This document shows positions 5,146 to 64,000 of a stretch of 64,000 nt of DNA, piece by piece. Every line of letters begins with the position of its first letter. Position 1 is the stretch's first letter. The translations under genes were made by a program, and so were the position numbers. The stretch comes from Candidatus Poribacteria bacterium (GTDB lineage Bacteria > Poribacteria > WGA-4E > PCPOR2b). The notes under the pieces were generated by a model that made no database searches, was not told the origin of the DNA, and saw only the letters and a program-made list of their open reading frames with translations. The stretch lies in assembly GCA_965208325.1 (NCBI GenBank), contig OZ242326.1, forward strand, positions 4,576,001-4,640,000, written 5' to 3'.

Positions 5146-5174
5146 ATTTAGAAAGAGTTATTCGGCGTTTAAAA

Positions 5175-5214
5175 GGGAAAGCAGGGATATCTTCTGCTTT
5201 CCCATTTTTATTTT
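5175..5214 (+). terminator. Intrinsic terminator after ino1
   Basis: 10-bp stem GGGAAAGCAG/CTGCTTTCCC followed by ATTTTTATTTT. Confidence 0.8.
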
Positions 5215-5319
5215 ACCTTTTAAGCGGCATCATCCGCCGCGACACATCCGTCGTCCGCCGATCAGTTTTTTTGAATTCTAAACAAGGTCAAATTCTTTCT
5301 TTCAAGTAAGGAGTGAAAC

Positions 5320-5670: not shown

Positions 5671-5833
5671 TTACCAAAAACGCGCTCGTGCCCTCTAAAT
5701 GCTATTTCGCGCGAAAATTTTGCCAAAATCGGTTCGAGTTTTTTCAATAAGGCGTGGTAAACGATCTGTCATATAAAGATTTCAATATTGTGTCTACAAG
5801 GATGAATCCACGTCACTCCTAATCAGATTAATA

Positions 5834-6721
5834 TCACTGCGCGGCTTTTATTGTTGCCCATATGGTTAGCATACCTTCCTTTGGAGACACCGACAATTGC
5901 CTTGGCGACCACGCAGGTTTGCTGTCAGATGACGGGTTTTGCGTTAAGTTTGTCTGATTTCCACCGTCCGAATCCATGACATAAATCTCCGAGTTGCCAT
6001 CGCGGCTTGAGGCAAAGGCAATTTTTTTCCCATTCGGAGACCAACTCGGTTCGCCGTCCCACCCTGGCGATTGGGTAAGCCTGACGACGTTCCCGCCGTC
6101 CGCATCCATGATGCAGATTTCGTAATCGCGGTCGCGAACCGATCGAAAGGCGATGTGTTTTCCATCGGGCGACCAACTCGGATCCGCGTCCGACTCCGCG
6201 CTTCGGGTCAGTCGCACAACATTTCCGCCATCAGCGTCCATGACAAAAACCTCAAGATCTAGAGCGAAGAACGGGCCAGTGAAATTTCCGTCACGCCGTG
6301 ACGTAAAGGCAATCTTTAACCCGTCTGGAGACCATCTCGGATGGCCATCACTCTCGGCGGCTTTTGTGAGCTGGATGAGGTTTTTGCCGTCAACATCAAT
6401 GACATAAACTTCGGAATTGTCTTCGCTATGAGACTCGAAAGCAATTTTTGTCCCATCCGGTAACCAGCTTGGGTGTAAATCCCGAGAAGCTAGGTTTTTC
6501 GTGAGGTTACGAGGTTTAGATCCATCGCTCTTCATTATGAAGATGTCAGGATTCCCACCAGGGTTGTCGCGGTTTGAGGTGAAGGCAATCATTGAATCGA
6601 GCGAATGGGCTTGATTAATCGACATAAGTGCAAATGCCAGCATTACTGCGAATCGGCGTAAGTGCACGAGTCGGTTCTTCCGTATGAATTTCATGAGCTC
6701 GATCTCCCAGTTAGGATTCAT
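5834..6721 (-). CDS. TolB-like PD40-repeat beta-propeller, secreted (start may be 6694)
   Basis: Repeated PxWSPDGxKIAF...IYVMDADG units; signal-peptide-like N-terminus. Confidence 0.9.
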   Translation of the reverse strand: MNPNWEIELMKFIRKNRLVHLRRFAVMLAFALMSINQAHSLDSMIAFTSNRDNPGGNPDIFIMKSDGSKPRNLTKNLASRDLHPSWLPDGTKIAFESHSEDNSEVYVIDVDGKNLIQLTKAAESDGHPRWSPDGLKIAFTSRRDGNFTGPFFALDLEVFVMDADGGNVVRLTRSAESDADPSWSPDGKHIAFRSVRDRDYEICIMDADGGNVVRLTQSPGWDGEPSWSPNGKKIAFASSRDGNSEIYVMDSDGGNQTNLTQNPSSDSKPAWSPRQLSVSPKEGMLTIWATIKAAQ

Positions 6722-6953
6722 CCTGAGATTAGGTTAGTTGATTTGCTCAATCTGTTGTCATCTATGGCGGCGACTTCGAATTTAATGCCCGTTGCAAAAA
6801 GAGAAAGTTAGCTGAATAGATGATGGTAGTCCAATCTCATTCTGAAAGCTAATTTTGAACTAGCAGAGGAAATGTGTACAGTAGGCATTATTTATACAAT
6901 TCCAAAAATTCCTCAATAGTTGTAGTCATCAAGAACATCTTTGCGATTATATT

Positions 6954-6969
6954 AGCAAATTCTGTGCCA
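6954..6969 (-). promoter_or_regulatory. Sigma-54 (-24/-12) promoter for the 5834-6721 gene
   Basis: Minus strand reads TGGCAC-AGAAT-TTGCT, an exact TGGCAC-N5-TTGCW match, correctly oriented and intergenic. Confidence 0.75.
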
Positions 6970-7471
6970 TTACTAATGAACAGCACTTTTTAGGCGGTTT
7001 AGGCGTAGCCCATTACGAGAGATCAAGATTCGGAATTGGCAATGCAGCGAAATGCTGACAGCACCGTGTCAATTACGCCACACCATTGTTCAGATATCGC
7101 AGGGTTTGCCGACTGCAAAATAAAACCGGAGAAAATTGAAAACGGCGCACTAGTGATGGTAACAGGGTGCCGTCAACTGCGGGAAATTTTTTTGAGCGAC
7201 GGTTGAGTATTGAGCAGCCTGAAACTGGCCAATGGAACGCTGTAGGCGTGAACCCTTGTCCGGATGGAAGCGGGCATAACGCAACCGACACTATTTCAGA
7301 ACTTGGCACGTGAGACAATTCTCGCCGAATGAAATCGAATTAAACTCTTCTAGTCGAATCCGCGGGGATGAGACACTCGAAGAAATAACGCGAGAATCAT
7401 AATGAGGAAAACGCAGTAGGCATAAGTTATAGAGGTGTTTCTATGCATCGCTATGGGATTTTGTAGGCACC

Positions 7472-8476
7472 TTACAATTCCGCGTCGATCAATGGGAGTT
7501 TTTTTATTGCCGCCCATAGCATCAATAATTGCTTCTTTGGAGAAACCGCCAATGGATTCGGCGGCCATGCAGGGCTGACATCGACCGCCGGATGTTGGGT
7601 GAGATTTGTCGGATTACCGCCGTCATCGTTCATAACATAAATCTCCCAGTTCCCATCACGCACTGACGAGAAGGCAATTTTCCGACCGTCCGGAGACCAG
7701 CAGGGCGCACTGTCTTTTGCAGGGTCTCTAGTGAGCCGGACAGGATTTTTTCCGTCAGCGTCCATGACATAAATCTCCCCGTTTCCATCGCGCTTTGACG
7801 AAAATGCAATTTTACGCCCGTTTGGCGACCAGCTAGGACTGACATCCCATCCGGGGGATTCCGTAAGTCGAACCACGTGCGGATTTCTGCCGTCAGCGTC
7901 CATAATAAAAATCTCGAGATCTCTGAATCCAGCGCGCCATGACGTGAAGGCGATTTTCCGTCCATCCGGAGACCAGCTAGGATCGCGGTCGAATCCACGG
8001 TTAAGCGGATACCGGAAGCGGTTCTTGCCGTCAGGGTCCATAAGGTATAATTCTAAACCTCCAACCCCTCCAACCCCATACTCAAAGGCGATTTTCCGTC
8101 CGTCTGGAGACCAACTTGGATCGACATCTAAAAATCGGTTTGACGTAAGCCGAACAGGGCTCTTGCCGTCAGCATTCATTACGTAGATTTCGGGATTGTT
8201 TCCGTCGCGTTCCGCCTGAAATGCGATTCTCGTCCTATCTGGCGACCAAGCAGGGGCCTGATCGTGTGACAATGGATTATTCGAAAGATTGCGTACCTGT
8301 GACCCATTCGGTTTCATTACAAAGATGTCACGATTTCCACCGGGGTTGTCACGGTCTGATGAAAAGGCAATCATTGAGTCTAGGGATTGGGCTTGATTGA
8401 CCGACATGAGGACAAAGCCCATTACCACAATTAGGCTGGGCAAAAACACGGTTCGGTTCATTTGGACCGTTTTCAT
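7472..8476 (-). CDS. TolB-like PD40-repeat beta-propeller, secreted; paralog of 5834-6721
   Basis: PD40 repeats; shares the NQAxSLDSMIAF..RDNPGGN segment with its paralog; AAAGGAGG RBS. Confidence 0.9.
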   Translation of the reverse strand: MKTVQMNRTVFLPSLIVVMGFVLMSVNQAQSLDSMIAFSSDRDNPGGNRDIFVMKPNGSQVRNLSNNPLSHDQAPAWSPDRTRIAFQAERDGNNPEIYVMNADGKSPVRLTSNRFLDVDPSWSPDGRKIAFEYGVGGVGGLELYLMDPDGKNRFRYPLNRGFDRDPSWSPDGRKIAFTSWRAGFRDLEIFIMDADGRNPHVVRLTESPGWDVSPSWSPNGRKIAFSSKRDGNGEIYVMDADGKNPVRLTRDPAKDSAPCWSPDGRKIAFSSVRDGNWEIYVMNDDGGNPTNLTQHPAVDVSPAWPPNPLAVSPKKQLLMLWAAIKKLPLIDAEL

Positions 8477-11001: not shown

Positions 11002-11694
11002 TTATCGCTTGATGGTTTTTGCCTGCTCCAACGTCTGATGGCTGAGAATTCGCTGCCGGTCCACAGGCCGCAAATGAGGTTCTACCTGCCGCACAAATTC
11101 CTGTAACGTCTCCGAGGCTGAGGTGCTAGTTGTATCTATAGTGATTTTTGCATCAATTATTGAGTTAGTATAGACTTCTTGAAATCGATCTAACACGGTT
11201 TCGATATCCTGCGAATGTTTGAGGGGGCACCGGGGACGCGGTGCCTGCCGCATGCGATTGCGGATTACATCCGGTGACGCTTTCACGAGTACCAATACCA
11301 TATCCGGCGCCAAAACTTTTAGATCGGTTTCGATGAACCGCGCAAGGTATTGGCGGTCGTGTCCGCCGAGATTCGGATAATACAGCGGTACATATACAGC
11401 GTCGGCGTAGTACCAGTTTTCAATCAGGAAATCATCGCGATGGTAAAGCACAGGCTGCAGATGATAAACGAATTGGAATCGCTGAAACTGTTCGACAAAC
11501 GAAGGGACTTTCTCAAGGAGTTCCATAACGGTCTCTTCGATTTCGTCCGTAGCTTCTCCTTGACCCACATTTGGCAGCGTGAAGTGGTCGTGGCAGCCGG
11601 TATAGCTTCCCATGGTTTGCGCAATCCAATCGGTGATTCCGTTAACTAGCGTCGTTTTGCCAGCATACTCGCAGCCGATTATAAAAATTCGCAT
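11002..11694 (-). CDS. P-loop NMP-kinase-like protein
   Basis: N-terminal IIGCEYAGKTT Walker A; LVLVKASPDVIRNR lid region; IDTT near the C-terminus; GGAGG RBS. Confidence 0.75.
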   Translation of the reverse strand: MRIFIIGCEYAGKTTLVNGITDWIAQTMGSYTGCHDHFTLPNVGQGEATDEIEETVMELLEKVPSFVEQFQRFQFVYHLQPVLYHRDDFLIENWYYADAVYVPLYYPNLGGHDRQYLARFIETDLKVLAPDMVLVLVKASPDVIRNRMRQAPRPRCPLKHSQDIETVLDRFQEVYTNSIIDAKITIDTTSTSASETLQEFVRQVEPHLRPVDRQRILSHQTLEQAKTIKR

Positions 11695-11922
11695 CTATGT
11701 CCTCCCGAGTGAATACCAAGTTACGGCGGCGCCTCCCACCGTCGTGCGGCCAAGCGGAAAAGTCCCCAAGCCCTGGAAACTTACGAGCGTGAGTGCGTTG
11801 CATCGCCGCTCAATAATGCCGTAGGAAGAGTTGTAAAACTACACGGTTTAAATTCCGCCTATTATATCACACACCATAGACTAGGTAAACAGGATTACCG
11901 TTTCACGGGCATGGCTAAGGTG

Positions 11923-14421
11923 CTATTCCTTTGAATCTAAACGCGGAACTATCACTGCTCCGGCAATATAAATGCCAATTGCCGCCAGGATTACAGTACT
12001 AAACCCAAACGAAATTGCAAGGCAGGTTGCCAGAATTGCGCTCACCACTGAAGCATAACCGTTTATTGCCCATGCCCACGCGATCAGGTGTGGATTGCGA
12101 TTTCTCAGCAGGTCTATCCCGAGCGGAAACGGCATTCCCATAAAAAACGCCAGCGGGGCAATGAGTGAAATTGAGACTGTTATTTTTATCGGGTCCGGGC
12201 TTGCCAGGAAACGATGGAAGATTGGGTTAAACAAGAGGAGATAGAGCAGCGCAATTGCCGATAACACGCCGATTGCAACGGGAATGGGATACCGCAGCGG
12301 AAATTTTACTTTGAATTTTAGGATTGTGTCCCTGAATCGCAGCGAGAAAAAACTGCCTAACCCTGCAAAAACAAGAAATGCACTGAGCACGACCGCGACG
12401 GCATAAGTCGGGTGGGAGAGCAGGAGAAGGAATTTCTGAATGAACGCCATCTCAATAAACATGAAGGCGGCGCCCAAGCTGAAGAAATAGCCGAGTATAC
12501 TCCAATATTTGATTCTACGCGGTTGACCACTGGTTGGTGTTCGAGAAGTTGTATCCCTACCTTGTCGGGTAATACACACGGATTGGCGCTTTGAAAGGAT
12601 GAGCGGCACGAGGATTAGGATGAATCCCACTAAAACAGCTTGCAGCAGGGTTGCAATAAGAAGTAGATAACCCCACTCAATGAACGGGATGGAACTCCTG
12701 CCGGCTGCGCGAATCATTTGAAATAGCGAATCTAACCGAAGAAAACGAAAAAAATACGGGCGATCGTCGGTCGCGGGACGGGTGTAAAATAGATACTCGC
12801 TGTAGAACCGCTTTCGATTCTCGAACAGAATCGACTGTGCTGCGCGGAAATAGATTGGTTCGGTTAGTTGGTTATACCGGTTTGCCTCTGATTCACCCAT
12901 GTCGGGATAGTAGGCGGTGTCGAAAGAACGCTCGCCGCAAAAATTGCGAATTATCGCCCGTTCATGCGGATGGAAACGACTGTTTTTAATCAGGAGTGTA
13001 CCTGTTCGCCAGCCACGAATCATGACTAATTTTTCAGCGGGATTTTGCTCGCCGTTCCGCTCGAGTGCTTCGACCGCTGTACCAAACAGCTTAATCATAT
13101 CTCGCGGCGGCGTTTTCAACCAGCGCGTAATTGACACGATACCGTTGGGATTCAGATGTTGCAAGAGTTCCGTAATTGCTTCTACCGTGTAAAGATAGCT
13201 CTCACTCAGGGCGTGTGTGCCCGCGGCGGACGCATTCACAGAATCCAACAGTGCGATTTGGATGAGGTCGTATTTCCCCGCCATCGATCTCACAAATCCC
13301 CGCGCTTCAGCGTTGTAAACTCGAACCGGATAAGCCGAATTCGAGGCGTAAATATTCCCTGCGAAATCCCCGTGCACTTTCTCCACCAAATTGACGATTT
13401 GGGGATTCAATTCAACAGCGTCGACGGAACTTGCGCTGTGATATAAGGCGTTGAGAACGTCGCTCCCGCCGCCTGCGCCTAACACGAGTACACGCGGCCT
13501 CTTGAGCAGGTGGTACGCCAATGCCGAAGTTGTGTCGTCCAGATAAGCCAGTTTCGATAGGTCTCCATCGAAATTGGTGATTGCAGTCATTGCGTCTGCG
13601 TCAGTGAATACGCCCAACTGCGCCGGTATCGGGTGTTGTGATGTCAAGCTTAAGCCTGGCGCAGATCGAATGGACTCGCTCCGAACAACGTGCAAAGCGC
13701 CAAGTGGACTGTTTGCCTCGCTCAGAACTTCTGCATCAGGAAAGTTCAGTGTAGCCTCCAGACCCTTGTAAGGCGAAACTTTAATTGAGATTGGCTTGAG
13801 CAACAAGCAGCCGATAAATAGTGCGCCGCCGACTGTAATCAGACTAATCCCACGCCAATGGGTTCTTAGACTACCCAGATTAGAGATTAAGACTCCACAT
13901 ATCCCAATGGCTGAAATCACGATGAGAATGGCGGCGGGGGGAACCACGTACATGAAAAAAACAACGCCGAACGCACCGATTCCCGACCCGAGGAGATCGA
14001 AAAAATAGAGCCGATTTACGTGTCGGTTGAATCGCAGCAGCGCCGTGCCGATGCACGCTGCGCCGAAAAAAAATGGGACGGATAGTATGAGGTATTGCGC
14101 GAGAAGGGACAGCATTTGACCCGGTTGCCAAATTAGCATAAACGGGTTAAATGGCACATTCTGGTTCAAGGCAAAACAAACGGGGACACTGATTGAGAAT
14201 ATCATCCCGGAGATGCTGTAGGACAGTTCAAAACGCTTCATCAGCCAACCCTGCGCGAGGAAAATCACGCTCCCGCTTGCACCAAATCCGAGCAACGCAA
14301 GGCTGATAATCATGTAAGCGAAATGACCCCACTGGCCGATTGAGAAAAGGCGCATCAGGGTAATTTCGTACGCGATAATAGAACCGGATATCAGTGAAAT
14401 TGAAATGAAGTAACGAGTCAT
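11923..14421 (-). CDS. Membrane spermidine-synthase-like SAM-dependent methyltransferase
   Basis: N- and C-terminal TM bundles; VLVLGAGGGSD and AVELNPQI; ATDDRPYF; MGMPFPLG; WAWAINGYASV. Confidence 0.8.
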   Translation of the reverse strand: MTRYFISISLISGSIIAYEITLMRLFSIGQWGHFAYMIISLALLGFGASGSVIFLAQGWLMKRFELSYSISGMIFSISVPVCFALNQNVPFNPFMLIWQPGQMLSLLAQYLILSVPFFFGAACIGTALLRFNRHVNRLYFFDLLGSGIGAFGVVFFMYVVPPAAILIVISAIGICGVLISNLGSLRTHWRGISLITVGGALFIGCLLLKPISIKVSPYKGLEATLNFPDAEVLSEANSPLGALHVVRSESIRSAPGLSLTSQHPIPAQLGVFTDADAMTAITNFDGDLSKLAYLDDTTSALAYHLLKRPRVLVLGAGGGSDVLNALYHSASSVDAVELNPQIVNLVEKVHGDFAGNIYASNSAYPVRVYNAEARGFVRSMAGKYDLIQIALLDSVNASAAGTHALSESYLYTVEAITELLQHLNPNGIVSITRWLKTPPRDMIKLFGTAVEALERNGEQNPAEKLVMIRGWRTGTLLIKNSRFHPHERAIIRNFCGERSFDTAYYPDMGESEANRYNQLTEPIYFRAAQSILFENRKRFYSEYLFYTRPATDDRPYFFRFLRLDSLFQMIRAAGRSSIPFIEWGYLLLIATLLQAVLVGFILILVPLILSKRQSVCITRQGRDTTSRTPTSGQPRRIKYWSILGYFFSLGAAFMFIEMAFIQKFLLLLSHPTYAVAVVLSAFLVFAGLGSFFSLRFRDTILKFKVKFPLRYPIPVAIGVLSAIALLYLLLFNPIFHRFLASPDPIKITVSISLIAPLAFFMGMPFPLGIDLLRNRNPHLIAWAWAINGYASVVSAILATCLAISFGFSTVILAAIGIYIAGAVIVPRLDSKE

Positions 14422-14824
14422 TGGGGTAGATGCTTATTTGCCGCGCAGTTAGTTTGGTTGCCAGATTGGGTCGAGGTAAACCTATCACCCACAGTTGCGA
14501 TTTCAATCAATGCAGTGCCAGATTCGGTATTAATGATTTGGACTGTAGGAGGTTCCGAGTGTCGCGACGCTCGTAACTGCAAAGTGCCGCGTATTGTGGG
14601 CGATACATTACACCTGTGACTTTAATGGTATCGTCTTGGTTTAGCCGCTCAAACTGCACTGGTCACAGGCTTCTTCTTTTGCGAACAATCGCGACGAAGA
14701 TTACTTTTTATCAAAGTCTAGTAGAAATTCCGCTCACCGTCAACGACAATTCGTTGTTCTTTCGACTCCGCATGCATCTCGCAAAGGGCCGAAGTTACTT
14801 CCTCGTGACAATACGACAGATATT

Positions 14825-14853
14825 TTGCTTTTTTCTCGCTGTTGTGCTATAAT
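14825..14853 (+). promoter_or_regulatory. Sigma-70-type promoter for 14955-15875
   Basis: TTGCTT-17 nt-TATAAT with TG extension. Confidence 0.6.
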
Positions 14854-14954
14854 TTCAAACCATCTTGAGGTCAGAAATCGCTATGGTGTTTATTGGCCTC
14901 CTTAGTCCCTCTCAGCTAAATGCCACAGAAATTCACACGTGAGGTAATCAAGCG

Positions 14955-15875
14955 ATGCAATACAATAAAGCGAATCGAACATTTGATTGCGAACCCACCC
15001 TCACCGACACACAAATTCTAGACTTTTGTAAGAATGGTTACATCATCTTGGAAGGTGTTGTCGATGAAGAAACGAACCAACGAACATGTGATTACTTGGA
15101 AGGAAGGCTGCCTGCTAACCCCAGTTACATTCCGAAAGGACTTACAACTGCAGATTTAGAACGGATTCGTAACTCTCACGAACCCAGCACAATTTTTCTT
15201 GAGGATTGGTTCGTTGAAAACACGCTTCTCAACCGTGAAGTCTGCGGCGCCCTCCGATCATTGCTCGGTAAAAACGTCGGGCTTCCGGTATTGGTTAGTC
15301 ATCACCGCGCTCAATGCCCCTCGCCTCCACAAGGGTGGCATCATGATGCCGACCATGTGTTTGGACCAGAACTAAATTTTGTTGAAGTGTTCTATTATCC
15401 TCAGGACACCCCAGAAGAATTAGGACCAACTGAAATTGTGCCTGGATCGCACATTCAACCCACGCATAGAGGGCCTGAAGACAGAGGGGTTCTATCCTCT
15501 GGTCCTGCTGGTTCACTTATCATCCACCATCAATGTATTCTTCACCGTAAAGGCCCGTCCACCGCTACAGGAACGCGCCACATGCTAAAATACAACTGTT
15601 GGCGCACCGCTGCACCAGATAGGGATTGGATTGTTGAACCCGAATTTGACTTACACACTACCTATTACGGCGGACACACTACGGCTAGATATGTTGCCCA
15701 TATGTTCTACTGGTTGTGCGGCAAGGGAGATGAATTTCGGGTAATCGGCGGACAAGGGTGGCCGTGGTCAACGAATAACCAAATCGGCCCGTCCTATGGA
15801 TATGGGAAGTCGGAAGGTTATATTCCGAACTGGCGTTACAATAACGGTGACGGCTACGCGGACGCCCCAAACTAG
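14955..15875 (+). CDS. PhyH-family dioxygenase
   Basis: F.KNGY.IL, GWHHD, GPTEIVPGSH, ILHR, distal R; GAGG RBS. Confidence 0.85.
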   Translation: MQYNKANRTFDCEPTLTDTQILDFCKNGYIILEGVVDEETNQRTCDYLEGRLPANPSYIPKGLTTADLERIRNSHEPSTIFLEDWFVENTLLNREVCGALRSLLGKNVGLPVLVSHHRAQCPSPPQGWHHDADHVFGPELNFVEVFYYPQDTPEELGPTEIVPGSHIQPTHRGPEDRGVLSSGPAGSLIIHHQCILHRKGPSTATGTRHMLKYNCWRTAAPDRDWIVEPEFDLHTTYYGGHTTARYVAHMFYWLCGKGDEFRVIGGQGWPWSTNNQIGPSYGYGKSEGYIPNWRYNNGDGYADAPN

Positions 15876-21405: not shown

Positions 21406-22677
21406 TTATGAGCCTGATAGCGTGTGCGCTGGCGCATGCGGCATCATCATGAGGGTCGCATAAATTTTCGCAACTGCAACGAGATCGGGGATACTCACCC
21501 GCTCATTGACCCCATGAGCACTTTCACCGTCAACGCCGTACCCTACACCTGGCAGACCGCCATCTACTACGAAATAGTGAAGATCTGTGAATCCGCTTGT
21601 AGCACTAAAGGTAGGGGTCCGTTTGCGAACGACTTGCACGGCTTCGCCGAAGGCTTGCACGAATGGGTGCCCCACGTCTACGATGCAAGGCGCAATAGAG
21701 AGTATTGTTTTGACATCCACCGCTAACTCAGAATCCGCACTACAAATTTCCTTAATGATTTCCCGGATTTCTTGTTCGACTTCTTCAAGGTTTTCCGAAG
21801 GAATGACGCGCCGGTCAATAGAGAAGGTAGCTTGCGCCGGAACCGTATTCACTTTATCCCCATCGGTGCCGTGAAAGACGCCACCGATACTAATCGTCGG
21901 ACGCCGATGCTGCCCCGATTCGGTTTCAAAAACGCGATTGGGCGGCGCTAAACGTGCTTTTTGGCGTTGAAGCGCCGAAACGAGTGATACCATTTTCTCG
22001 AACGCATTCAATCCCTTTTCCGGCTGAGACGCGTGTGCCGCCACACCGTGAACAGTCACGTTCATCCAAATGACGCCGTTGTGGCCGACACCCACATTCA
22101 AGAGTGAGCCCCCTTCGCAGTTGACGACATAATCCGCCTGAACCATCCGATTTTGAACCAAATAACCTGCGCCAAGTTCCCCTCCGATTTCCTCATCGCA
22201 GGTGAAGGAACATTCAATGTTGAAGACAGGTCGAAGGTTGTTCTCCCGAATGGACGAAATCGCAAATAACAAAGCAGCAATCGAATCCTTCATGTCGTCG
22301 GCACCTCTGCCATAGAGCCATTCATCTTCGATTTCAGGCGCGAACGGCGGAAACCGCCAATTCCCAGCAACTGGAACGACATCGTAGTGGGCGTTGAAAT
22401 GAATCGTTTTATTTGCGCCAACATCCCATCGGGCGATTAAGTTGAGACGCGGATAAGCGTCTGCATGGGGCACAACACTAAGCGTTTCTGATTCTGGTAC
22501 TGGAATAACCGTTGTGTGAAGACCTAGCGCTTCACACCGCTTTTCGAGCAGATTGACCATTTCCACATAATGTCTGCCCGGCGGATTAGTGGTGTCCACC
22601 GAAACTATCTCTTTCAGAAGATTGCATAACCTCCCACGACTATGTTCAATTGTCCGAAATACTTTTTCCACCGTCAT
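21406..22677 (-). CDS. M20 family metallopeptidase (ArgE/DapE-like)
   Basis: NAHYDVVP, YGRGADDMK, DEEIGG, HAS.P..G.NA, AHG.NE. Confidence 0.9.
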   Translation of the reverse strand: MTVEKVFRTIEHSRGRLCNLLKEIVSVDTTNPPGRHYVEMVNLLEKRCEALGLHTTVIPVPESETLSVVPHADAYPRLNLIARWDVGANKTIHFNAHYDVVPVAGNWRFPPFAPEIEDEWLYGRGADDMKDSIAALLFAISSIRENNLRPVFNIECSFTCDEEIGGELGAGYLVQNRMVQADYVVNCEGGSLLNVGVGHNGVIWMNVTVHGVAAHASQPEKGLNAFEKMVSLVSALQRQKARLAPPNRVFETESGQHRRPTISIGGVFHGTDGDKVNTVPAQATFSIDRRVIPSENLEEVEQEIREIIKEICSADSELAVDVKTILSIAPCIVDVGHPFVQAFGEAVQVVRKRTPTFSATSGFTDLHYFVVDGGLPGVGYGVDGESAHGVNERVSIPDLVAVAKIYATLMMMPHAPAHTLSGS

Positions 22678-35989: not shown

Positions 35990-36018
35990 TCATCACCGTT
36001 TGTAATTAAGGGAGTTTG

Positions 36019-38280
36019 ATGCAATTTACGTATTATTTGCCAGGCTGGGCAGTCGCTATAGCGCTGGCAATTGTGGCGGGCGTTACGATTTATGCTTACC
36101 TCCGTCTACAACAATCTCTCAACCAAGGACTTAGATTTATCCTAATCGGGTTAAGGGTTGCAGCCGCATCGCTAGTGTTATTATGTCTGTTAGCGCCGGT
36201 GGTGTCTGAGAGAATAGACGTTACGCCAAAGACTAATTTCCTGATTCTTGCAGATACTTCCCAAAGCATGAATTTTGACGATGTGGAGTTAGACGGCCGA
36301 CAAACTGACCGTTTGACCCTTGTGAATCAGCTATTATTCAATCTGTCTAGTCAATTTCTAAATGTTCTTGCGAACCAATTTGAGGTGCATCTATATCAAT
36401 TTAATACCCATGCGCAGAGAATCGCCGACCCGCTTGAGCCGCTTGAAGCGAAAGGACGATTAACAGATATCGCTACCTCAATCCAGCAAGTACTCAAAAA
36501 GTGGCGTGGGCAGCGGATTGCTGGCGTGATGTTGATTACTGACGGCGCCCATAACTCTTCGGCGTTTCAATCCGACAGTATCGCCGATGTGCAAGTCCCC
36601 ATTTACACAGTCGGCGTTGGTAATCCTCAGCCCCGCAAAGACCTGAAAATTTCAAGAGTTAAAGTGAGTCCAGTCGTTTATGTGGGACATGATGCACCTA
36701 TCCGTTTCACTGTTGAACAAACGGGCTACGCTGGGAGCACGGTTCGCGTTTCATTGATGCAGGACGCTCGTTTAACTGACGCTGCGTTGATTACATTGGA
36801 CGAGCGACCAACTCAGGATATCGAATTCACTTTGGATCCCCAAAAAGAGGGCGTTTTTCAATATGTCATTTCTGTGCCGACTCTTCCGGATGAGCTCACG
36901 CATGTGAATAACGAGAGGGTCTTTTCCTTAAAAGTTGTCAAAACGAAATTTCGTGTATTGTACGTTGATGGGCGGCCTCGTTGGGAATATACGTTTCTCA
37001 AACGCGTATTGGAACGGGATGCTGACATTGAATCAACCTGTATGATTATATCGAATCGCACGAACCGCCAACTTCGCGGAACGCTGCTGGGACGTACCAA
37101 CCGACACTACCCGCAAACAACCGCTTTGGGCAGACTGCCTTATTTTCCAGATACGATTTCCGAATTACTAAAGTACGATGTGCTAATTTTAGGGGATTTG
37201 CCATCGACTACCTTGAATAAATTACAGCACGACGCAATTGTCGATTTCGTCGAAAATCACGGTAAGTCGGTTATCTTTCTCGGTGGACGGAGTTCGCTCG
37301 GCGCAAAGGGCTTAAAGGAAACCGCTTTGGAACGCTTGCTGCCGATTGTTATTCCAGCGAACGGATGTGCTGTTCAAAATGAAGACTTCAGTCTGGAACC
37401 TACCCAACAAGGAATCTACCATCCCATAATGCGCGTGGGAGATACGCGGTCAAAAGTTGAAGCCATTTGGAGGGACTTGCCGACGCTGCCACGATGGTTC
37501 GGTGACTTCCGTCTCAGGGGCGGGGCAACCACTCTTGCCGTTCGCGGGCAATCTCGGGACGAGAATTCAATGCCAATCGTGGTTATACAGAGATCTGGTT
37601 TAGGTAAAAGCCTCCTCATTGCGGCGGAAGGGCTTTGGCACTGGGGATTCGGCGTGTGGGGGTTCAAGGAAGAAGATGACACCTATCCCCGTTTTTGGGG
37701 AGGGGCTATTCGCTGGATGGCATCGCAACCCTATGGCAAACCCATTAATCTAACGACTGATTTGACAACCTATTTGGTCGGGGACGAGGTTCAAATTACC
37801 GTATACGCTTATGATGAGAGCTACCGCCCTCTGGCTGATGCGGCGTTCAAAATTAACGTTATTCCTCCGGGCGGGAATTCGTTCCAAGTTAGTGATGCGA
37901 CTAGTTCACAAATTGCGGGTGTCTATACAACTCAGTTTGAGGTCAATCAGAAGGGAAATTATCAGATTCGTGCCATGGGTGTCGAAGACTTTTCTTCTTT
38001 AGGTGAGGATTCGACAGAAATACTCGTTCAATCTCCACTTTCGGAGTTTGAAAATCCACAACTCAATGAGCCGTTGCTACAACAATTAGCTGAAAATACG
38101 GGCGGATTTTACACTCCGATTCGTGATGTGGAATCTCTACCCAATAAAATTAAAGATGTTGAAGAGCGAGTTTTTACTGATCAAGAACGAGATTTGTGGA
38201 ACACGCCTATCATTTTGATTCTTGTGGTTGGATTGCTGGGAGCAGAATGGTTTCTACGTAAGCGAAGCGGCCTGGTGTAA
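36019..38280 (+). CDS. Membrane-anchored VWA plus glutamine-amidotransferase-like domain protein
   Basis: Two N-terminal TMs; MIDAS DTSQS and ITDG; YDVLILGD GATase-like region; C-terminal TM ending EWFLRKRSGL. Confidence 0.8.
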   Translation: MQFTYYLPGWAVAIALAIVAGVTIYAYLRLQQSLNQGLRFILIGLRVAAASLVLLCLLAPVVSERIDVTPKTNFLILADTSQSMNFDDVELDGRQTDRLTLVNQLLFNLSSQFLNVLANQFEVHLYQFNTHAQRIADPLEPLEAKGRLTDIATSIQQVLKKWRGQRIAGVMLITDGAHNSSAFQSDSIADVQVPIYTVGVGNPQPRKDLKISRVKVSPVVYVGHDAPIRFTVEQTGYAGSTVRVSLMQDARLTDAALITLDERPTQDIEFTLDPQKEGVFQYVISVPTLPDELTHVNNERVFSLKVVKTKFRVLYVDGRPRWEYTFLKRVLERDADIESTCMIISNRTNRQLRGTLLGRTNRHYPQTTALGRLPYFPDTISELLKYDVLILGDLPSTTLNKLQHDAIVDFVENHGKSVIFLGGRSSLGAKGLKETALERLLPIVIPANGCAVQNEDFSLEPTQQGIYHPIMRVGDTRSKVEAIWRDLPTLPRWFGDFRLRGGATTLAVRGQSRDENSMPIVVIQRSGLGKSLLIAAEGLWHWGFGVWGFKEEDDTYPRFWGGAIRWMASQPYGKPINLTTDLTTYLVGDEVQITVYAYDESYRPLADAAFKINVIPPGGNSFQVSDATSSQIAGVYTTQFEVNQKGNYQIRAMGVEDFSSLGEDSTEILVQSPLSEFENPQLNEPLLQQLAENTGGFYTPIRDVESLPNKIKDVEERVFTDQERDLWNTPIILILVVGLLGAEWFLRKRSGLV

Positions 38281-38425
38281 AAGCTATGAGGAGTTTTCCG
38301 AACACAGTAAAATTTTGGTTTACCAAAAACATTTGGCCAGTCGGTGCGTTGGTGCCTCACCGGAATTATGCCGGTCCAGCTGACGTAAACTTTGTTTACT
38401 GCCGCAATACTGATGTTGCCGTGAC

Positions 38426-39103
38426 ATGAAAAATTATCGAAGAATGGTACTCTTTTCAGCTATTTGGGGACTAGCCGCCCTAACCGTATCCGTCCAAGCG
38501 GCGGGCGATAAATTCGTGATAGCCCAAGTTCAATACGGCGGCGGCGGAGATTGGTACGGCGATCAGACTGTAATTCCCAACTGGCTTAAAAGGCTTAGCA
38601 GCGTCACCGATATTGAGACTGCCGACAATCGCGTAATTACAAAGCTAACGGATCGTAACGTATATCAATATCCAATGCTGTACCTTGTCGGGCACGGTAA
38701 TATCCGCCTTACAGAGAAAGAGGTCGAGGCATTGCGTCTTTATCTAATGCGCGGCGGTTTTCTCTTCGCGAACGACGACTATGGACTTGACAAGAGTTTT
38801 CGGCGTGAAATGACCCGCGTGTTCCCGAATGAAGAACTTCAACCGATACCGAATTCACATCTAATCTATCACTGCTTTTATGATTTTCCGCATGGCTTGC
38901 CGAAAATTCACGAGCATGATGCTGAACCGGCACAAGGCTTTGGACTATTTCACGAAGGGCGGATGGTGGTGTTTTATGCCTATAGCTCAGACATTGGGGA
39001 TGGGTTGGAAGATTCAGAAATTCATCCCGAGGACTCTCATGAAGTTCGTCAACTCGCCGTAAAGATGGCGGTTAATATAGCAGTTTACGCACTAACACAT
39101 TAA
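38426..39103 (+). CDS. DUF4159 domain protein, secreted
   Basis: Signal peptide; YGGGGDWY, YPMLYLVGHG, GGFLFANDDYG, SDIGDG, VNIAVYALTH. Confidence 0.85.
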   Translation: MKNYRRMVLFSAIWGLAALTVSVQAAGDKFVIAQVQYGGGGDWYGDQTVIPNWLKRLSSVTDIETADNRVITKLTDRNVYQYPMLYLVGHGNIRLTEKEVEALRLYLMRGGFLFANDDYGLDKSFRREMTRVFPNEELQPIPNSHLIYHCFYDFPHGLPKIHEHDAEPAQGFGLFHEGRMVVFYAYSSDIGDGLEDSEIHPEDSHEVRQLAVKMAVNIAVYALTH

Positions 39104-39193
39104 ACAGCCGCTATTGCCAGCAAATTCATTCTAGCTACCTTTTGCTGACTACCAATACTGCTGAAGATCAGGGGGAAGAACAGAGGGTATAAA

Positions 39194-42100
39194 ATGTCAA
39201 ATCCAACGCCCGATGCGCGCTGCCAAGAAATAAAAACCCACCTCCAACTGCTGCGAAATCAGTGGAGATTGTTGCTGTTTTCTCATAATTTTTTGCGATG
39301 GCTTGCTTTACTCGCACTAAGTCTTGCTACGGTGCTTACCGCTGATTCGTTAATGCAACTGCCGAGTTTTCTACGTATTGGGCTGCTGGTGCTGTGGTTA
39401 GGAATTACTGTCTGTACAGCATTTCGTTATCTAATTCGCCCGATTTTAAAAAAGTTAAGCAAAATTCGTGTAGCGGCATATGTTGATGCCAGTAACTCCG
39501 ACTTTGAAAACCGTTTATTGAGTACAGTTCAACTCGAACCAGAGTTGAAAGCTAACAACTTTGGGTATGCTACGGGCTTCATTGAAGAACTCACTCAACA
39601 GGCGCATCAATCCATCGACCGAATCGAATCAAAGCAAGTTTTCAAGAAGGAATTGATCGAACTCAAGAAAAACGGCGGATTTGCCGTGTGCGCATTGGCT
39701 TTATTAATTCTGGTAAACCTTATTTTCCCCGCAGCATTGCAAAATTTTGTGCAAGCATTCAATGAACTTCCCACGTCCCCTCAAGATGAAATTGCCGCCC
39801 AAATTGATGAAATCGATCCCGGAAATACCCTTATTCAATCCGGAGGAAACATTTCCATCTCCGCAAAAGTGATTGGGCATTTTGGCGCCCCAGTACATCT
39901 AAACTATCGTGCGGTACAGGCTATGGATCCAGCGAATCAGCGAGTTGAGCACCCTGCGCCGTCTTTCGATAAATGGCGGTCGATTTTAATGGAGCAAAAC
40001 CACACGGAGTCGAGCTATCATATTGAATTGAAAAATGTCACGCAGTCAATGGATTATTTTGTCAGGGTGAATGAAGCCGAGTCAGAACACTTCCGTATTA
40101 CTGTTGCGCACCATCCAATCGTTAGTCGTTTCCAGCTTAAACTTAGCTTTCCGAGATACACCCAACTTTCTCCGCACGTCTTAGAAGAAAATATCGGCGA
40201 CATCAGTGCGCTAATTGGCACTGGAGTACAGTTCGATGGCGAAAGCAATAAGTCCCTTGCTTCAGCTACGTTAATCTTTGAAGAATCACCGGCTGTAAAG
40301 CTCAAAGTTTTAGACAATAACCATCTAATCGGGAATTTTATTGTTCAGTGCAGCGAAAAATACCATGTTGAACTGATTGACGCCGATGGCATTTCGAATT
40401 CACAGCCAATTGTTTATACGATTCACACAATTAAGGATGACGAACCAAAAATAGAAATTGTTGAGCCTGGAAAAGATGTTACGCTTGATGAATCCATGAC
40501 AGTAAATCTCCAGATCGATGTTGAGGATGACTATGGCGTACAAGAAATTCGGTTGGTTTATCGGGTTGAAGAGCACAATGAAGGCGACAAGGTTGTCTCG
40601 CTTAAAGCTTTTAATCCGCCTCAAGGATCCGCCTACATCGAGTTTGGGTGGGATATAGATTCAATTGGGCTATTTCCGGAAGATGTTGTTACATATCATG
40701 CGGAAGCAATTGACTCAGATAATGTCACGGGACCAAACGTAGGGAAATCTATCACCTACTCAATCCGATTTCCATCTGTGGCAGAACTGTATGAAGCAAT
40801 CGAGGCTCAGCAGGAAATAGAGCAGCACGGGGTGGAGGCCTTATTTAGCAGGCAAGTTGAAGTGAAAGCAACAATTGATGACCTGTTAAGAAAAATTCGC
40901 AAGAGTCAGCAGTTTACTCTCAAAGATGAAAAGTTAGTAAATCAGGTGTTTGAAACGCAGAAACAAATTGAGCAAACCTCAAAGAATATTATCGAAGATA
41001 TGAAACAAACTGCCGAACAGATGGATAAGAATCAGTTGTTTGATTTGCGGACTATCCAAAAATATCAGGAATTGCAAGAACTGATGGAGCAGGCGTTATC
41101 AGAAACGCATAAAGAACTTCTACGAAAGTTGTCCGAGGCGCTGCAACAGCGGCAACTGTCCGATCAAGAAAGAAAATTGATGGAGACGAATTTCAACCAA
41201 GAACAATTTGTGCAGCAATTGGATCGATTGAAAGAACTCTATCAACAGTTAATTCTTGAGCAAAAATTGGAAGCTGCGGCAACTCAAGCGATGGATCTCG
41301 CTAAACGTCAGGAACGCTTGATGGACACGGTAAAGAATCTGATTAGTCGCGCCAATCAATTTAGTGAAGGGAATGAAATGGGATTGGAAAATCTTGCCGA
41401 ACAAGAAAACCGCGTTATGGCAGGTCTAGCCTCGCTCCACGAAAAGCTTGATGAACTAGGTGAAAAAATGTCGACACGGGCAAATCTGCAACGTGTCGCT
41501 GATGAAATAAAGCGGTTAAATCGGACGGCGCGAGAACGGGAAATCGCTCAAAAACTTCAATCCGCGGGTTCAGCAATTCAGCGGTCTCGCATGCGTGCTG
41601 CAATTGCACCGGGGCAGCAGGCGCAGGAAGGACTGAGTGACCTGGCACAAGGATTAGAAAACGCAATGGAATTCATGGGTGCGAATGCTGATGCGGCTTT
41701 AGCGGCAATGCGAGAAGCCGTACGCGACGGCATTTTTCTCTCCCATCTGCAAGAAAGAGTAATTGACGGGACTGAAGCACTCTTGGATTCGGGGCATGGT
41801 CGTTATATCGAGAGCGAGATTAAACGTTTACAGCGATTGTCGGCAAGTGAATTGAGCATATCATCGGGTATCACAGATCTTGCCAGCGGACTTTGGGATT
41901 TAGGCAAGGAACAGATGCAAATCGATCTGAAAATCGTCTTGAGACTGCGCGCTGCAAGCGATGCCTTTGCGAGATCGGCGCGCGCGTTAGAAGATCGAAA
42001 ACCAAGTTTGGCGACACCTATACAAAAGCAGGGATTGGCCGATCTCAATGAAGCAATTTTAGATCTCATCAAGGCAATGGGCCAGATGAACCAACAGATG

Positions 42101-42676
42101 GGTATGGGAGGATTGCAGAGTATGCTGGAGCAGCTCCAGGAAATGGCACAGAATCAGCAAAATCTGAACGAAATGGCTGAAAACCTACATGAACAGATGC
42201 GGCAGCAAGGACAGACACCTGAGATGAAACAGTTGCTCGATCGTTTGGCTTATGAGCAGGAGATGATACGTGAAGCGACCGAACGGCTAGCAGAAATGAT
42301 TGGAAGCATGTCACAAGTACTCGGTGATTTGAATAGTGTGTCCGAGGAAATGAAAGAAGTGGAAGCAGAACTTCAACAAGGCAACTTGAATCAACGCGTC
42401 TTAGAAAAGCAGCGACGGATTTTAACCCGAATGCTCGAAAGTTCAAAATCGTTACAAAAGCGAGAGATTAACAAACGGCGCAAAGGCGAGGCTGCTAAGA
42501 ATCCGATGGATTCCACAACAGATGCACCTGCACTCGATTCCAAACTGCTAGAGACGGTCCGCCAGCTTGAATCTGACCTAGAATCTGGCGGAAGAGATGG
42601 GTTTCCTCCGCAGTACCGCGGGTTGATTGAACAGTATTTTAAGGCATTATCTCAGGAAACACAGAGAGGATTGTAG
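39194..42676 (+). CDS. DUF4175-family membrane protein with Ig-like domains and long coiled coil
   Basis: N-terminal TMs, DD.P.I.I..P and EDDYG motifs, Q/E/L-rich coiled coil, terminal PPQYRGLIEQYFKAL. Confidence 0.8.
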   Translation: MSNPTPDARCQEIKTHLQLLRNQWRLLLFSHNFLRWLALLALSLATVLTADSLMQLPSFLRIGLLVLWLGITVCTAFRYLIRPILKKLSKIRVAAYVDASNSDFENRLLSTVQLEPELKANNFGYATGFIEELTQQAHQSIDRIESKQVFKKELIELKKNGGFAVCALALLILVNLIFPAALQNFVQAFNELPTSPQDEIAAQIDEIDPGNTLIQSGGNISISAKVIGHFGAPVHLNYRAVQAMDPANQRVEHPAPSFDKWRSILMEQNHTESSYHIELKNVTQSMDYFVRVNEAESEHFRITVAHHPIVSRFQLKLSFPRYTQLSPHVLEENIGDISALIGTGVQFDGESNKSLASATLIFEESPAVKLKVLDNNHLIGNFIVQCSEKYHVELIDADGISNSQPIVYTIHTIKDDEPKIEIVEPGKDVTLDESMTVNLQIDVEDDYGVQEIRLVYRVEEHNEGDKVVSLKAFNPPQGSAYIEFGWDIDSIGLFPEDVVTYHAEAIDSDNVTGPNVGKSITYSIRFPSVAELYEAIEAQQEIEQHGVEALFSRQVEVKATIDDLLRKIRKSQQFTLKDEKLVNQVFETQKQIEQTSKNIIEDMKQTAEQMDKNQLFDLRTIQKYQELQELMEQALSETHKELLRKLSEALQQRQLSDQERKLMETNFNQEQFVQQLDRLKELYQQLILEQKLEAAATQAMDLAKRQERLMDTVKNLISRANQFSEGNEMGLENLAEQENRVMAGLASLHEKLDELGEKMSTRANLQRVADEIKRLNRTAREREIAQKLQSAGSAIQRSRMRAAIAPGQQAQEGLSDLAQGLENAMEFMGANADAALAAMREAVRDGIFLSHLQERVIDGTEALLDSGHGRYIESEIKRLQRLSASELSISSGITDLASGLWDLGKEQMQIDLKIVLRLRAASDAFARSARALEDRKPSLATPIQKQGLADLNEAILDLIKAMGQMNQQMGMGGLQSMLEQLQEMAQNQQNLNEMAENLHEQMRQQGQTPEMKQLLDRLAYEQEMIREATERLAEMIGSMSQVLGDLNSVSEEMKEVEAELQQGNLNQRVLEKQRRILTRMLESSKSLQKREINKRRKGEAAKNPMDSTTDAPALDSKLLETVRQLESDLESGGRDGFPPQYRGLIEQYFKALSQETQRGL

Positions 42677-61915: not shown

Positions 61916-61945
61916 AGTATACCAAACCCAATTGATGTATGTCAA
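61916..61945 (-). promoter_or_regulatory. Sigma-70-type promoter of the str operon
   Basis: Minus strand TTGACA-18 nt-TATACT with upstream A-tracts. Confidence 0.7.
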
Positions 61946-62082
61946 GTTTTTTCTAGGTTTTTTTTGAGTTATGTCAAGTTTTTTCGCAATCTACTGCTTT
62001 TAACACCGTAATCACAAATTTAACGCTCACATCAGAGCGCTAAGAAAGGCTCAACGAGCCAAATAAAATACCGAACAAACCC

Positions 62083-63774
62083 TTATTTTTTATAAGCGGA
62101 TCGATCGGTATTTCCCCCGTATTTCATCGCATACACAAATAAATTGACCATAAACCGATGCACATCAGCGGATCGGCGCATCCTTAGCATGGTCCGACTT
62201 GGGATTTCTGCTGTTTCCATCGCACAGAGATAATCCTTCCGATTATAAAGCACTGCGACACGACGTCCAATCGTAATCGCCTTATGGTATTTAAACTTCG
62301 TGACTTTAGGATTATTTTCCGATCCCCAGTACACATCAGACCCATTCGGAGGGATTGATAGCTTATAATAGATGGAATAAATCTCATGGTTGTGTGGGAT
62401 TGACTGAAGCGGATATTCTGGCAGGATTTTTTTCAATTCATCCGCGACACGCGCGGCGAACAAGCCCTTGAACCCGCAATCATCGAAAAATAGCGTCCCA
62501 CCGCGTTCCACGAGGTATTTTCTCATTGCCGACCGTTCTGCAGGAGTAAAGCCCACCATCCACGGCTCGCCCCGCATTAGATTACGCGTTGTGGTCAATT
62601 CTTTATCGTGTCCGGTCATAACAATGATGGGTGCATCAAGGATTCTCGGATCTGTCATTCGCATGGCGCCGCCCTCCAGTTTCATATCCGCACGCAGGCG
62701 AGTATTGTCCGATAACCACCGCATGAAACTCGGCAGCGCCGAGGGATCTTGCCACCAATCTGCTAGTGAATGAATTAGTCGAGTGAAGCGGATATGACCT
62801 TGTATGTCAGCGCCCTCCCCTTCTAATATTGCACCTAACTTATCATCAGGCACCGTCGTGATTTTAGCCAACGGATCGTCTCCAACGCCTCCGGCGCCAG
62901 CGTCGGCTGCCCCGACCGTGCCAACTAGCGAGTCAATACCGCCTGTTCCGCTTCGGCCGCGTCCGTTTATTGCCTCTGTACCTGACCCGCGCCCCTTATC
63001 GGGACCTCGACGCCCGCCGACTGCGGGGGCAATGACCTCCTCGTTGCGCTTGGGTTCGATGTCTGCCACCGTCTTTACAGGACTATCTACAATCGTATCC
63101 GGAACTAATGGGGACACGTCCATCGACACACGGCTTGGGGCAGCCGCGACAGGCCTAGCAACTCGCGGAGCAGAAGACACTCGAACGGGTTGGGAAATCT
63201 GTTGCGCGGGTTGGGGCACCGGTTCAGGCGGTTTGGGCTTGATCTTTTTCAACCGCCTAACCTTCGGCTGCGGCTTCACCATCTCGACCGCAATCGCATC
63301 TTTAATTTCATCCGCGTCGTCCCTTGCAAACAGGAAAATAGCGAAAGCCAAGATAACGTGTGAGACTACAGAGAATACCATCGAATTGCGCACCGTACGA
63401 CGTTTTGGCGTCACTACCGCGATTGCTGTTTCCGCCGCTGGAGACTGTGGCACGTAGGTAGACGCGCTCAGGTAATAGGTCTGTCCGCCGCAATCCACTT
63501 GCATTTGCCCTTCCGGGAGCATGCGGAACTCGGCGCGTTGTCCGGCACGGACTACCTCACTCAGCCGTCTGACGGGCAGAATTACCGTCCCCGGTTGCGT
63601 AACATCCGCGTCAATTGTAATTTTTGTGTCTGAGGTTGAAAGCTCTAGCTTATCGTTCTCAATGCTACGCACACGCACATCGGAGATATACTCTAGGTGA
63701 TTATCTCGCGCCGCCCGCGACTGGAGAGACTTGATTGCTTTTAGAAGGTCCGCTTGTTTGGCTGTGAATTGCAT
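62083..63774 (-). CDS. Fusion: DnaN domain-I-like region, TonB/TolA-type TM helix, Pro/Gly-rich linker, DUF4159
   Basis: AAGGA RBS 8 nt before ATG; aa 1-104 resemble the DnaN N-terminus; TM at about aa 132-150; C-terminus shares GG.LF.DD.G, IP..H.IY and M.VN...YA with 38426-39103. Confidence 0.75.
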   Translation of the reverse strand: MQFTAKQADLLKAIKSLQSRAARDNHLEYISDVRVRSIENDKLELSTSDTKITIDADVTQPGTVILPVRRLSEVVRAGQRAEFRMLPEGQMQVDCGGQTYYLSASTYVPQSPAAETAIAVVTPKRRTVRNSMVFSVVSHVILAFAIFLFARDDADEIKDAIAVEMVKPQPKVRRLKKIKPKPPEPVPQPAQQISQPVRVSSAPRVARPVAAAPSRVSMDVSPLVPDTIVDSPVKTVADIEPKRNEEVIAPAVGGRRGPDKGRGSGTEAINGRGRSGTGGIDSLVGTVGAADAGAGGVGDDPLAKITTVPDDKLGAILEGEGADIQGHIRFTRLIHSLADWWQDPSALPSFMRWLSDNTRLRADMKLEGGAMRMTDPRILDAPIIVMTGHDKELTTTRNLMRGEPWMVGFTPAERSAMRKYLVERGGTLFFDDCGFKGLFAARVADELKKILPEYPLQSIPHNHEIYSIYYKLSIPPNGSDVYWGSENNPKVTKFKYHKAITIGRRVAVLYNRKDYLCAMETAEIPSRTMLRMRRSADVHRFMVNLFVYAMKYGGNTDRSAYKK

Positions 63775-64000
63775 TGTTAGTTTCCTTCGCTGTCATTTAA
63801 GGCCTTTTTTGCCCTATCAAGATAGTCGAGAATTTCTGGCTCGTCGGCGGCTAAGTCGGGTCGAGACGTACCGCTTCATCAAAGTCAGCGATTGTGTCCG
63901 CGGATTGTATTATTTAAAACTTCGTCCTACAACATCAATAGTAGACAACAATGTACTCCGAATTTAGTCGATTTGCCGCGTCATATTTCGCAATCGTTGC

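Follow-up and report, generated by a model that had tools for sequence, protein, structure and literature searches.

Near the end of the stretch of DNA analysed here lies a gene whose product joins three singly known modules in one chain. The stretch, hereafter the window, is 64,000 nucleotides (nt) long and covers positions 4,576,001-4,640,000 of the single-contig 4.71-Mb genome of a Candidatus Poribacteria bacterium, a sponge symbiont. Read from the window sequence, the open reading frame (ORF) occupies 62083..63774 on the minus strand, starts with ATG and codes for 563 amino acids (aa). It begins with a homologue of domain I of the sliding clamp DnaN, continues with a transmembrane (TM) helix and stalk of TonB type, and ends in a DUF4159 domain. 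An earlier account made from the letters alone, termed here the sequence-only reading, had described one ORF with these limits and a good ribosome-binding site, and was exact on both counts; the motif GAAGG(A/G)AA before the gene is kept in 4/4 genomes of the genus. A full-length AlphaFold2 (AF2) model, built on a 69-row alignment with a mean predicted local distance difference test score (pLDDT) of 66, is ordered at aa 1-104, disordered at 108-127, helical at 126-152, disordered again at 154-303 and ordered at 304-563. In what follows species genomes bear G-numbers (the host is G000), excised loci L-numbers, protein homologues P-numbers, and genera and families g- and f-numbers. The parts of the gene are these:

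63783..63787, minus strand: Shine-Dalgarno-like AAGGA, 8 nt 5' of the ATG, read directly
63463..63774, minus strand: DnaN domain I-like clamp domain, aa 1-104 (Pfam, Protein Data Bank (PDB) profile, AF2, Foldseek, VIA-align)
63400..63462, minus strand: cytoplasmic linker, aa 105-125, ending in K124-R125-R126, of low conservation (pLDDT <50 at 108-127)
63319..63399, minus strand: single TM helix, aa 126-152, with S135-x3-H139, a TonB-type anchor (AF2 helix)
63175..63318, minus strand: acidic juxtamembrane segment, then Pro/Lys-rich stalk, aa 153-200, predicted periplasmic (from sequence; predicted disordered; within the TonB-matching profile described below)
62866..63174, minus strand: Ser/Pro/Val-rich, then Gly-rich linker, aa 201-303 (disordered, pLDDT <50 across 154-303)
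62086..62865, minus strand: DUF4159 domain, aa 304-563, of class-I glutamine-amidotransferase-like fold, predicted periplasmic (PF13709, 98.8 bits)
62083-62085, minus strand: stop codon

The succession of basic patch, single TM helix, Pro/Lys-rich then Gly-rich linker and DUF4159, listed by the sequence-only reading, is present throughout, in the sequence itself, in the AF2 model and in the PF13709 match.

The first 104 residues are truly homologous to domain I of DnaN. On the whole protein the Pfam family PF00712 (DNA_pol3_beta) scores 21.1 bits, under its cut-off of 24.4; on aa 1-104 alone it reaches 26.0 bits (E 1.1e-5), above that cut-off. The NCBIfam dnaN model TIGR00663 aligns aa 1-90 with its positions 1-94, at 24.6 bits against an equivalog cut-off of 137.65. 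Twelve such N-terminal domains (N-domains), from loci of 11 genomes, make up an alignment, A3, eight members of which are matched by PF00712 (best E 4.2e-8). Compared with the PDB, the A3 profile gave 47 matches at E<=1. All but one of them (46) are beta clamps, in which the aligned part is the first ~110 residues; the best E is 3.4e-6. Among 1.84 billion representative proteins it found 1,521 at E<=0.001, DnaN-length proteins appearing down to E 1e-12. The best 150 of the 1,521 comprise 95 proteins of DnaN length (352-405 aa), 46 shorter proteins, four of the fusion type (563-571 aa) with four short fragments (70-191 aa), and one false positive: the top match, P0122, a haemagglutinin-like repeat protein of 5,173 aa with 38 matched stretches, was set aside as repeat-driven. 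Structure tells the same story. The AF2 model computed on A3 has a pLDDT of 88.1 and a predicted template-modelling score (pTM) of 0.79; all its top Foldseek matches are sliding clamps (TMq 0.73-0.77), and VIA-align superposes it with Z 15.2 and a root-mean-square deviation of 2.2 A over 102 residues. Of the best 50 VIA-align entries, one is matched through domain III and the other 49 through clamp domain I. The domain is 25% identical to the host's own DnaN (BLASTP, E 2e-7), and a query of aa 1-110 also retrieves true dnaN genes, with frames of 365-400 aa and E between 1e-8 and 1e-4, from many genomes of the phylum. What had been an alignment by eye with DnaN domain I is borne out by these clamp-fold matches.

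Nothing else of the clamp follows. The families of clamp domains II and III (PF02767 and PF02768) were not found in the protein by Pfam scan, save a 13.9-bit echo on domain I; from residue 105 onwards come linker, TM helix, stalk and DUF4159, and the partner-peptide pocket, which lies between domains II and III, is absent, as the sequence-only reading had stated. That reading also asked that an intact dnaN be confirmed elsewhere, and one exists (L005 5766..6869, minus strand), in a dnaA-dnaN-recF-DUF721-gyrB locus at 3.12 Mb of the host genome. In a scan of the whole genome PF00712 is present in just two genes, dnaN and the fusion gene. Within the domain, conservation is highest in the LLKA helix, and Lys12 does not vary (26/26 rows). 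In the last strand (aa 98-103), hydrophobic residues stand at positions where the host's DnaN and Escherichia coli beta also have them, this strand forming the dimer interface in beta; their retention is a hint towards DnaN. The isoelectric point (pI) of the N-domains is 4.8-9.0, near neutral, as compared with 4.5 for domain I of the host's own DnaN, so that the surfaces have diverged from those of DnaN. For interactions the domain offers a pair of basic helices and the two edges of its beta-sheet that are left free.

So unusual a chain may raise the suspicion of a mis-assembly, or of a true start at Met132, just before the TM helix, where or near which some relatives do start. Such an artefact is hardly credible. 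Single contigs from three independent sponge-metagenome studies bridge 63300-63500, two of them spanning the whole of 62000-63900, and all are colinear with the host sequence, differing by substitutions only, with no indels. The fusion gene is not an assembly artefact. The Shine-Dalgarno sequence precedes Met1, and 13 genomes keep the N-domain in an open frame that is under selection; an extra internal start, used besides Met1, may exist. These 13 emerged from a search of 176 Poribacteria species genomes with aa 1-110 and belong to eight genera in three families: G000, G033, G034, G035 (with two copies), G029, G030, G032, G018, G057, G058, G059, G061 and G063. In a further genome, G113 (contig C159, locus L017), the fusion is split over two frames (offsets 1101 and 1697; 213 + 220 aa) and has an insertion in the N-domain. 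It is the only one seen in genus g18, and is a pseudogene unless the split is due to an error of sequencing. Homologues do not all begin at the membrane: 38 of the 120 listed whole-protein homologues carry a complete N-domain, while 82 gave no N-domain match, and in the approximately 40 of these that were inspected the cytoplasmic tail is short and basic, or unrelated in other ways.

The membrane anchor comes from another family. K124-R125-R126 stand before the TM helix and acidic residues after it, an arrangement which, by the positive-inside rule, should leave the N-terminus in the cytoplasm. H139 is invariant in the 69 rows of the full-length alignment A4; position 135 is serine in 50, alanine in 18 and threonine in one. 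A serine followed at four residues by a histidine (S-x3-H) in an N-terminal TM helix is the TonB pattern, and the host's own TonB proteins display it. A BLASTP comparison of aa 105-330 with these proteins was weak and lacked composition correction; it was replaced by a hidden Markov model (HMM) of aa 122-205, run over all 15,099 open frames of the host genome that reach 80 aa. Besides the fusion protein itself (E 7e-24), the HMM matches the host's two TonB_C proteins (E 3.2e-7 and 1.8e-6), four proteins headed by a VWA domain (E 4e-14, 9e-14, 1.6e-8 and 3e-4) and other DUF4159 paralogues (E 3e-6 to 1.5e-3). These matches make the TonB-like stalk a real shared module, in keeping with what the sequence-only reading had perceived, and the anchor shares its ancestry with the N-terminal module of the host's own TonB proteins. 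In 10 or more other genes of the host it bears a VWA or a DUF4159 head; the host has a family of TonB-anchored heads, namely TonB_C, VWA and DUF4159. TonB_C itself (PF03544) was not found in the fusion protein even at E<=10, its C-terminus being filled by DUF4159. The four proteins with a TonB-like anchor and a VWA domain are encoded at 2217486-2218721, 4323757-4324992, 2490123-2492126 and 1812130-1813275 of the host contig (G000:C1; loci L079-L082). The host genome has one ExbB-ExbD-ExbD cluster, at 2.83 Mb (locus L083), which is not linked to the fusion gene.

As for the head, the fusion protein is a clear member of the DUF4159 family: PF13709 matches aa 329-550 with 98.8 bits (cut-off 25.9), over profile positions 1-202 of 202, and the best Foldseek match of the C-terminal domain is the uncharacterised 4i66 (Hoch_4089; E 5.6e-11, TMt 0.78). 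The published account of the Pfam database places DUF4159 in the class-I glutamine-amidotransferase clan, for reasons of structure (PMC4702930). A stand-alone DUF4159 paralogue (225 aa, E 1.6e-59) lies in the window at 38426-39103; its signal-peptide-like N-terminus fits an extracytoplasmic location of the domain. The paralogue belongs to a plus-strand cluster at 36016-42676, made of a VWA/MG2 protein (754 aa), this secreted DUF4159 protein and a DUF4175 protein (1160 aa), which ties DUF4159 to VWA proteins in the host genome. A literature search, with most subscription journals outside its coverage, found neither a function for DUF4159 nor any such fusion.

Each part of the protein thus has its known counterpart, and departs from it. 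With DnaN (2pol, 5wce, 6djk) it shares the sequence family and fold of domain I, the conserved first helix and the final edge strand. However, it has one domain of three, hence no closed dimeric ring and no partner-peptide pocket; its clamp domain is tethered to the membrane, is near neutral where domain I of DnaN is acidic, and is encoded outside the dnaA-dnaN-recF locus. Its resemblance to TonB lies in the basic tail, in the one TM helix with its invariant histidine and, four residues earlier, a serine, and in the Pro/Lys-rich spacer. By contrast with TonB, its head is DUF4159 rather than TonB_C, its disordered linker is much longer, and a folded cytoplasmic domain of 104 aa replaces a short tail. 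Because TonB_C and clamp domains II-III are absent, the protein belongs as a whole to neither family. Its C-terminal 260 aa liken it to the DUF4159 protein of known structure from Haliangium ochraceum (4i66), whereas typical members of that family are stand-alone and secreted, as is the one at 38426-39103, between VWA and DUF4175 genes. The combination of clamp domain, TonB-like anchor and DUF4159 appears to be undescribed: the sequence-only reading knew of none, and within the literature searched a folded, selected clamp domain on the cytoplasmic end of a TonB-type protein has no counterpart.

What might such a domain do there? Lacking domains II and III, and therefore the pocket, it cannot act as a sliding clamp, nor bind clamp-binding peptides. 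The reading that we prefer, to which we give a probability of roughly 35%, is that the domain serves an envelope protein of TonB type as an accessory module for docking in the cytoplasm, DnaN being the preferred, unproven partner. The binding or capping of DnaN suggested by the sequence-only reading, as a tie between replication and an envelope complex, is one hypothesis among several. The protein is a bitopic inner-membrane protein, issued from a Poribacteria-specific expansion of proteins made of a TonB anchor and a periplasmic head; in one clade of this family, a domain I derived from dnaN has replaced the short basic cytoplasmic tail. Its topology would be that of TonB, N-terminus in and C-terminus out. 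The histidine of the TM helix may couple it to the single ExbB-ExbD-ExbD motor encoded elsewhere, and the stalk would carry the DUF4159 head across the periplasm. On the cytoplasmic side the clamp domain would dock through the exposed edge strands of its fold: the last strand, aa 98-103, could pair with the domain-III edge of a DnaN protomer, either free or opened by the clamp loader. Docking of this kind would place a fraction of the clamp, or of the replisome, at an envelope complex.

Several observations weigh against this view, some of them from the history of the family. A FastTree phylogeny of the region from the TM helix to the end (69 rows, chosen from 121) gathers all 26 N-bearing rows within one clade of 41 tips (support 0.966), which argues for a single origin of the fusion. 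Yet 15 tips nested in the same clade, in at least four groups, are N-less. Fitch parsimony counts five changes over the whole tree and reconstructs the ancestor of the 41-tip clade as N-bearing; many internal supports are low, which leaves the count of losses uncertain. The closest homologues (~50-53% identical), found in the 20 genomes of genus g7, are N-less as well, with frames of 445-501 aa. A domain lost in several nested lineages is dispensable, and its repeated loss in close relatives suggests that it is accessory rather than central to the function of the protein. In one N-less protein, P0058, the TM helix follows at once upon 13 initial residues that resemble the beginning of the N-domain, which looks like the scar of a deletion. 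The N-less state of P0014-P0016 may be due to a mis-called start (P0014, a close homologue, has its best match at 78% identity among 29 species genomes of the family).

Selection can be followed within the genus through the ratio of non-synonymous to synonymous substitution rates (dN/dS):

N-domain: 0.16-0.33 (10 pairs)
TM helix plus stalk: 0.11-0.34
linker: 0.09-0.19
DUF4159: 0.02-0.055

The values for the N-domain mean that it is translated and constrained by purifying selection. They are nevertheless 5-10 times those of DUF4159 and no lower than those of the disordered linkers, a further point against the docking proposal. The remaining objections concern partners. The computations made here revealed no binding partner; a prediction of the complex of two N-domain copies (score 0.01, mark 0.42) weighs neither way on binding. 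The shift of the N-domain pI to 4.8-9.0, from the 4.5 of DnaN domain I, reflects surfaces that have moved away from those of the clamp, and DnaN dimers are very stable, leaving little free domain-III edge for docking. On the side of the motor, the ExbBD genes are not adjacent to the fusion gene, and the serine at position 135 gives way to alanine in 18 of 69 rows.

The surroundings of the gene bring little help, as no conserved operon partner appears across the fusion-bearing genomes compared. The only case of a possible partner is the second copy in G035 (L036 6639-9211, minus strand; 67% identical), whose start overlaps the stop of a TonB_C gene (289 aa) immediately before it, in line with an anchor of TonB type. 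In G018, dinB, coding for a Y-family polymerase, is the divergent neighbour of the fusion gene, and in G061 and G063 a SRAP/YedK gene is its convergent neighbour, with a VWA gene close by (dinB and SRAP genes: L050 8780-9898, plus strand; L049 9724-10389, minus strand; L051 5924-6607, plus strand). These DNA-damage genes are a weak hint towards DNA metabolism; they are found in 3 of the 13 genomes, none of them co-directional with the fusion gene, and this too counts against the docking proposal. In G029 the gene upstream codes for an extracytoplasmic function (ECF) sigma factor with a long extension.

Loss and relaxation invite another account, in which a 5' fragment of dnaN was fused by chance and has persisted as a folded cap without function. 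The repeated loss of the domain, including the short remnant of P0058, and its relaxed constraint relative to DUF4159 are what one would expect of such a relic. However, dN/dS lies well under 1 in all ten pairs, and the domain has remained in frame and foldable (pLDDT 88), with its fold-determining residues conserved, across lineages in which its sequence is only 29-44% identical. A relic seems quite unlikely to us.

If the domain is used, its partner might be itself. Clamp rings consist of six such domains distributed over chains in varied ways, 2x3 in beta and 3x2 in PCNA, and a single clamp domain, as modelled, exposes both sheet edges that neighbouring homologous domains cover in DnaN. Lone domains could then pair head-to-tail through these free edges, into dimers, arcs or even a six-domain ring, and oligomerise the anchors on the cytoplasmic side without any contribution of DnaN. 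The divergence of their surfaces from DnaN (the pI shift, with 25-33% identity) would suit this arrangement. Yet N-less relatives evidently function without the domain; we hold self-assembly to be unlikely. Were it to occur, one clamp domain would be able to serve as an oligomerisation unit.

The lone domain might also be a genuine part of a working clamp, in either of two forms: six copies could build a hexameric ring tethered to the membrane, or the domain could insert at the dimer interface of DnaN. We regard this reading, in whichever form, as very unlikely. Its consequences would be considerable: in the ring, a clamp of the kind presumed ancestral would survive today; insertion would hold clamp or replisome at a trans-envelope complex driven by the proton-motive force; and either form would tie the replication of the poribacterial chromosome physically to the envelope.

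Lastly, the fold may have been repurposed, serving only as a scaffold; its ligand might be a regulator, ExbB (by its cytoplasmic domain) or DNA, which the two basic helices would contact. The invariance of Lys12 (all 26 rows) and the conservation of the LLKA helix above all other elements speak for it, as does the existence, in related genomes, of clamp proteins joined to an ECF sigma factor or to FtsZ. On the other hand, no partner is suggested by a conserved neighbourhood, and dnaN is the only other clamp-domain gene of the host. Repurposing remains, in our opinion, a doubtful though serious alternative to docking on DnaN.

The other fusions deserve description. In loci L037-L042 (genomes G174, G136, G135, G149, G165 and G155) a single frame of 575-595 aa joins an ECF sigma-70 factor (regions 2 and 4) to a three-domain DnaN paralogue; an example is L037 7374-9104 (plus strand), and Pfam recognised all five domains in the two members scanned. 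In genome G066 a candidate frame of 706 aa (L043 6213-8333, minus strand) combines a complete DnaN (PF00712, PF02767, PF02768) with the GTPase and FtsZ_C domains of FtsZ (PF00091, PF12327); it could be an assembly error. These proteins likewise reuse sequence derived from dnaN, in other genera (g18 and g13) and not in the host genome. They differ from the DUF4159 fusion, which has domain I only and is anchored in the membrane, by being cytoplasmic and by keeping the full three-domain clamp. In family f4, many genomes have two dnaN-like frames ~1.3 kb apart, as tandem clamp paralogues (for example G161:C2:20927-21247 and 22239-22562; G128:C40:45620 and 46915; also G077, G098, G087, G089, G104 and G106). 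Taken together, sigma-clamp fusions, the clamp-FtsZ frame and tandem dnaN genes make clamp-derived sequence a recurrent fusion module in the phylum. A clamp-based sigma/anti-sigma pair, formed by the DUF4159 fusion with an ECF sigma-DnaN protein, was considered as well. It is unlikely, because sigma-clamp fusions sit in genus g18, where the DUF4159 fusion is found once, and split; the host's only PF00712 loci are dnaN and the fusion gene.

Docking of the N-domain on DnaN, or on DNA, would connect the replication machinery physically and directly with an energised complex of the envelope. With the sigma-clamp and clamp-FtsZ fusions, the protein makes Poribacteria a phylum that uses the clamp fold as a general-purpose fusion module. 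The TonB-like anchor gives the uncharacterised DUF4159 family a first functional context, and the N-domain, small and soluble with its 104 aa, is easily tested.

In the four genomes of the genus the fusion gene stands directly upstream of the rpsL-rpsG-fusA-tuf operon, with the following features in between:

62020..62060, minus strand: two terminator-like hairpins 3' of the stop codon (consensus matches only, their number not above that of shuffled controls)
61916..61945, minus strand: near-consensus sigma-70 promoter of the rpsL-rpsG-fusA-tuf operon, TTGACA-18-TATACT (11/12, TG-extended)

As the operon has its own near-consensus promoter, the fusion gene is a separate transcription unit. On the opposite strand an ORF of 217 aa, 62804..63457 (plus strand), rich in Pro, Ser, Gly and Ala, mirrors the codons of the linker and is taken as spurious. 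Upstream of the host gene, a 680-bp gap (63775-64000 of the window; L004 3775-4456) retains partial similarity to the 3' end of a DnaJ-TPR gene, which occupies the position upstream of the fusion gene in G033, G034 and G035; to judge from this alignment, the gap is probably the remnant of a deleted gene. Beyond it, L004 codes for two very large secreted proteins, of 1198 aa (4457-8053, minus strand) and 1407 aa (11469-15692, minus strand), both ending in sorting-like domains of the type IX secretion system (T9SS)/FlgD-Ig type, the first with LVIVD repeats as well.

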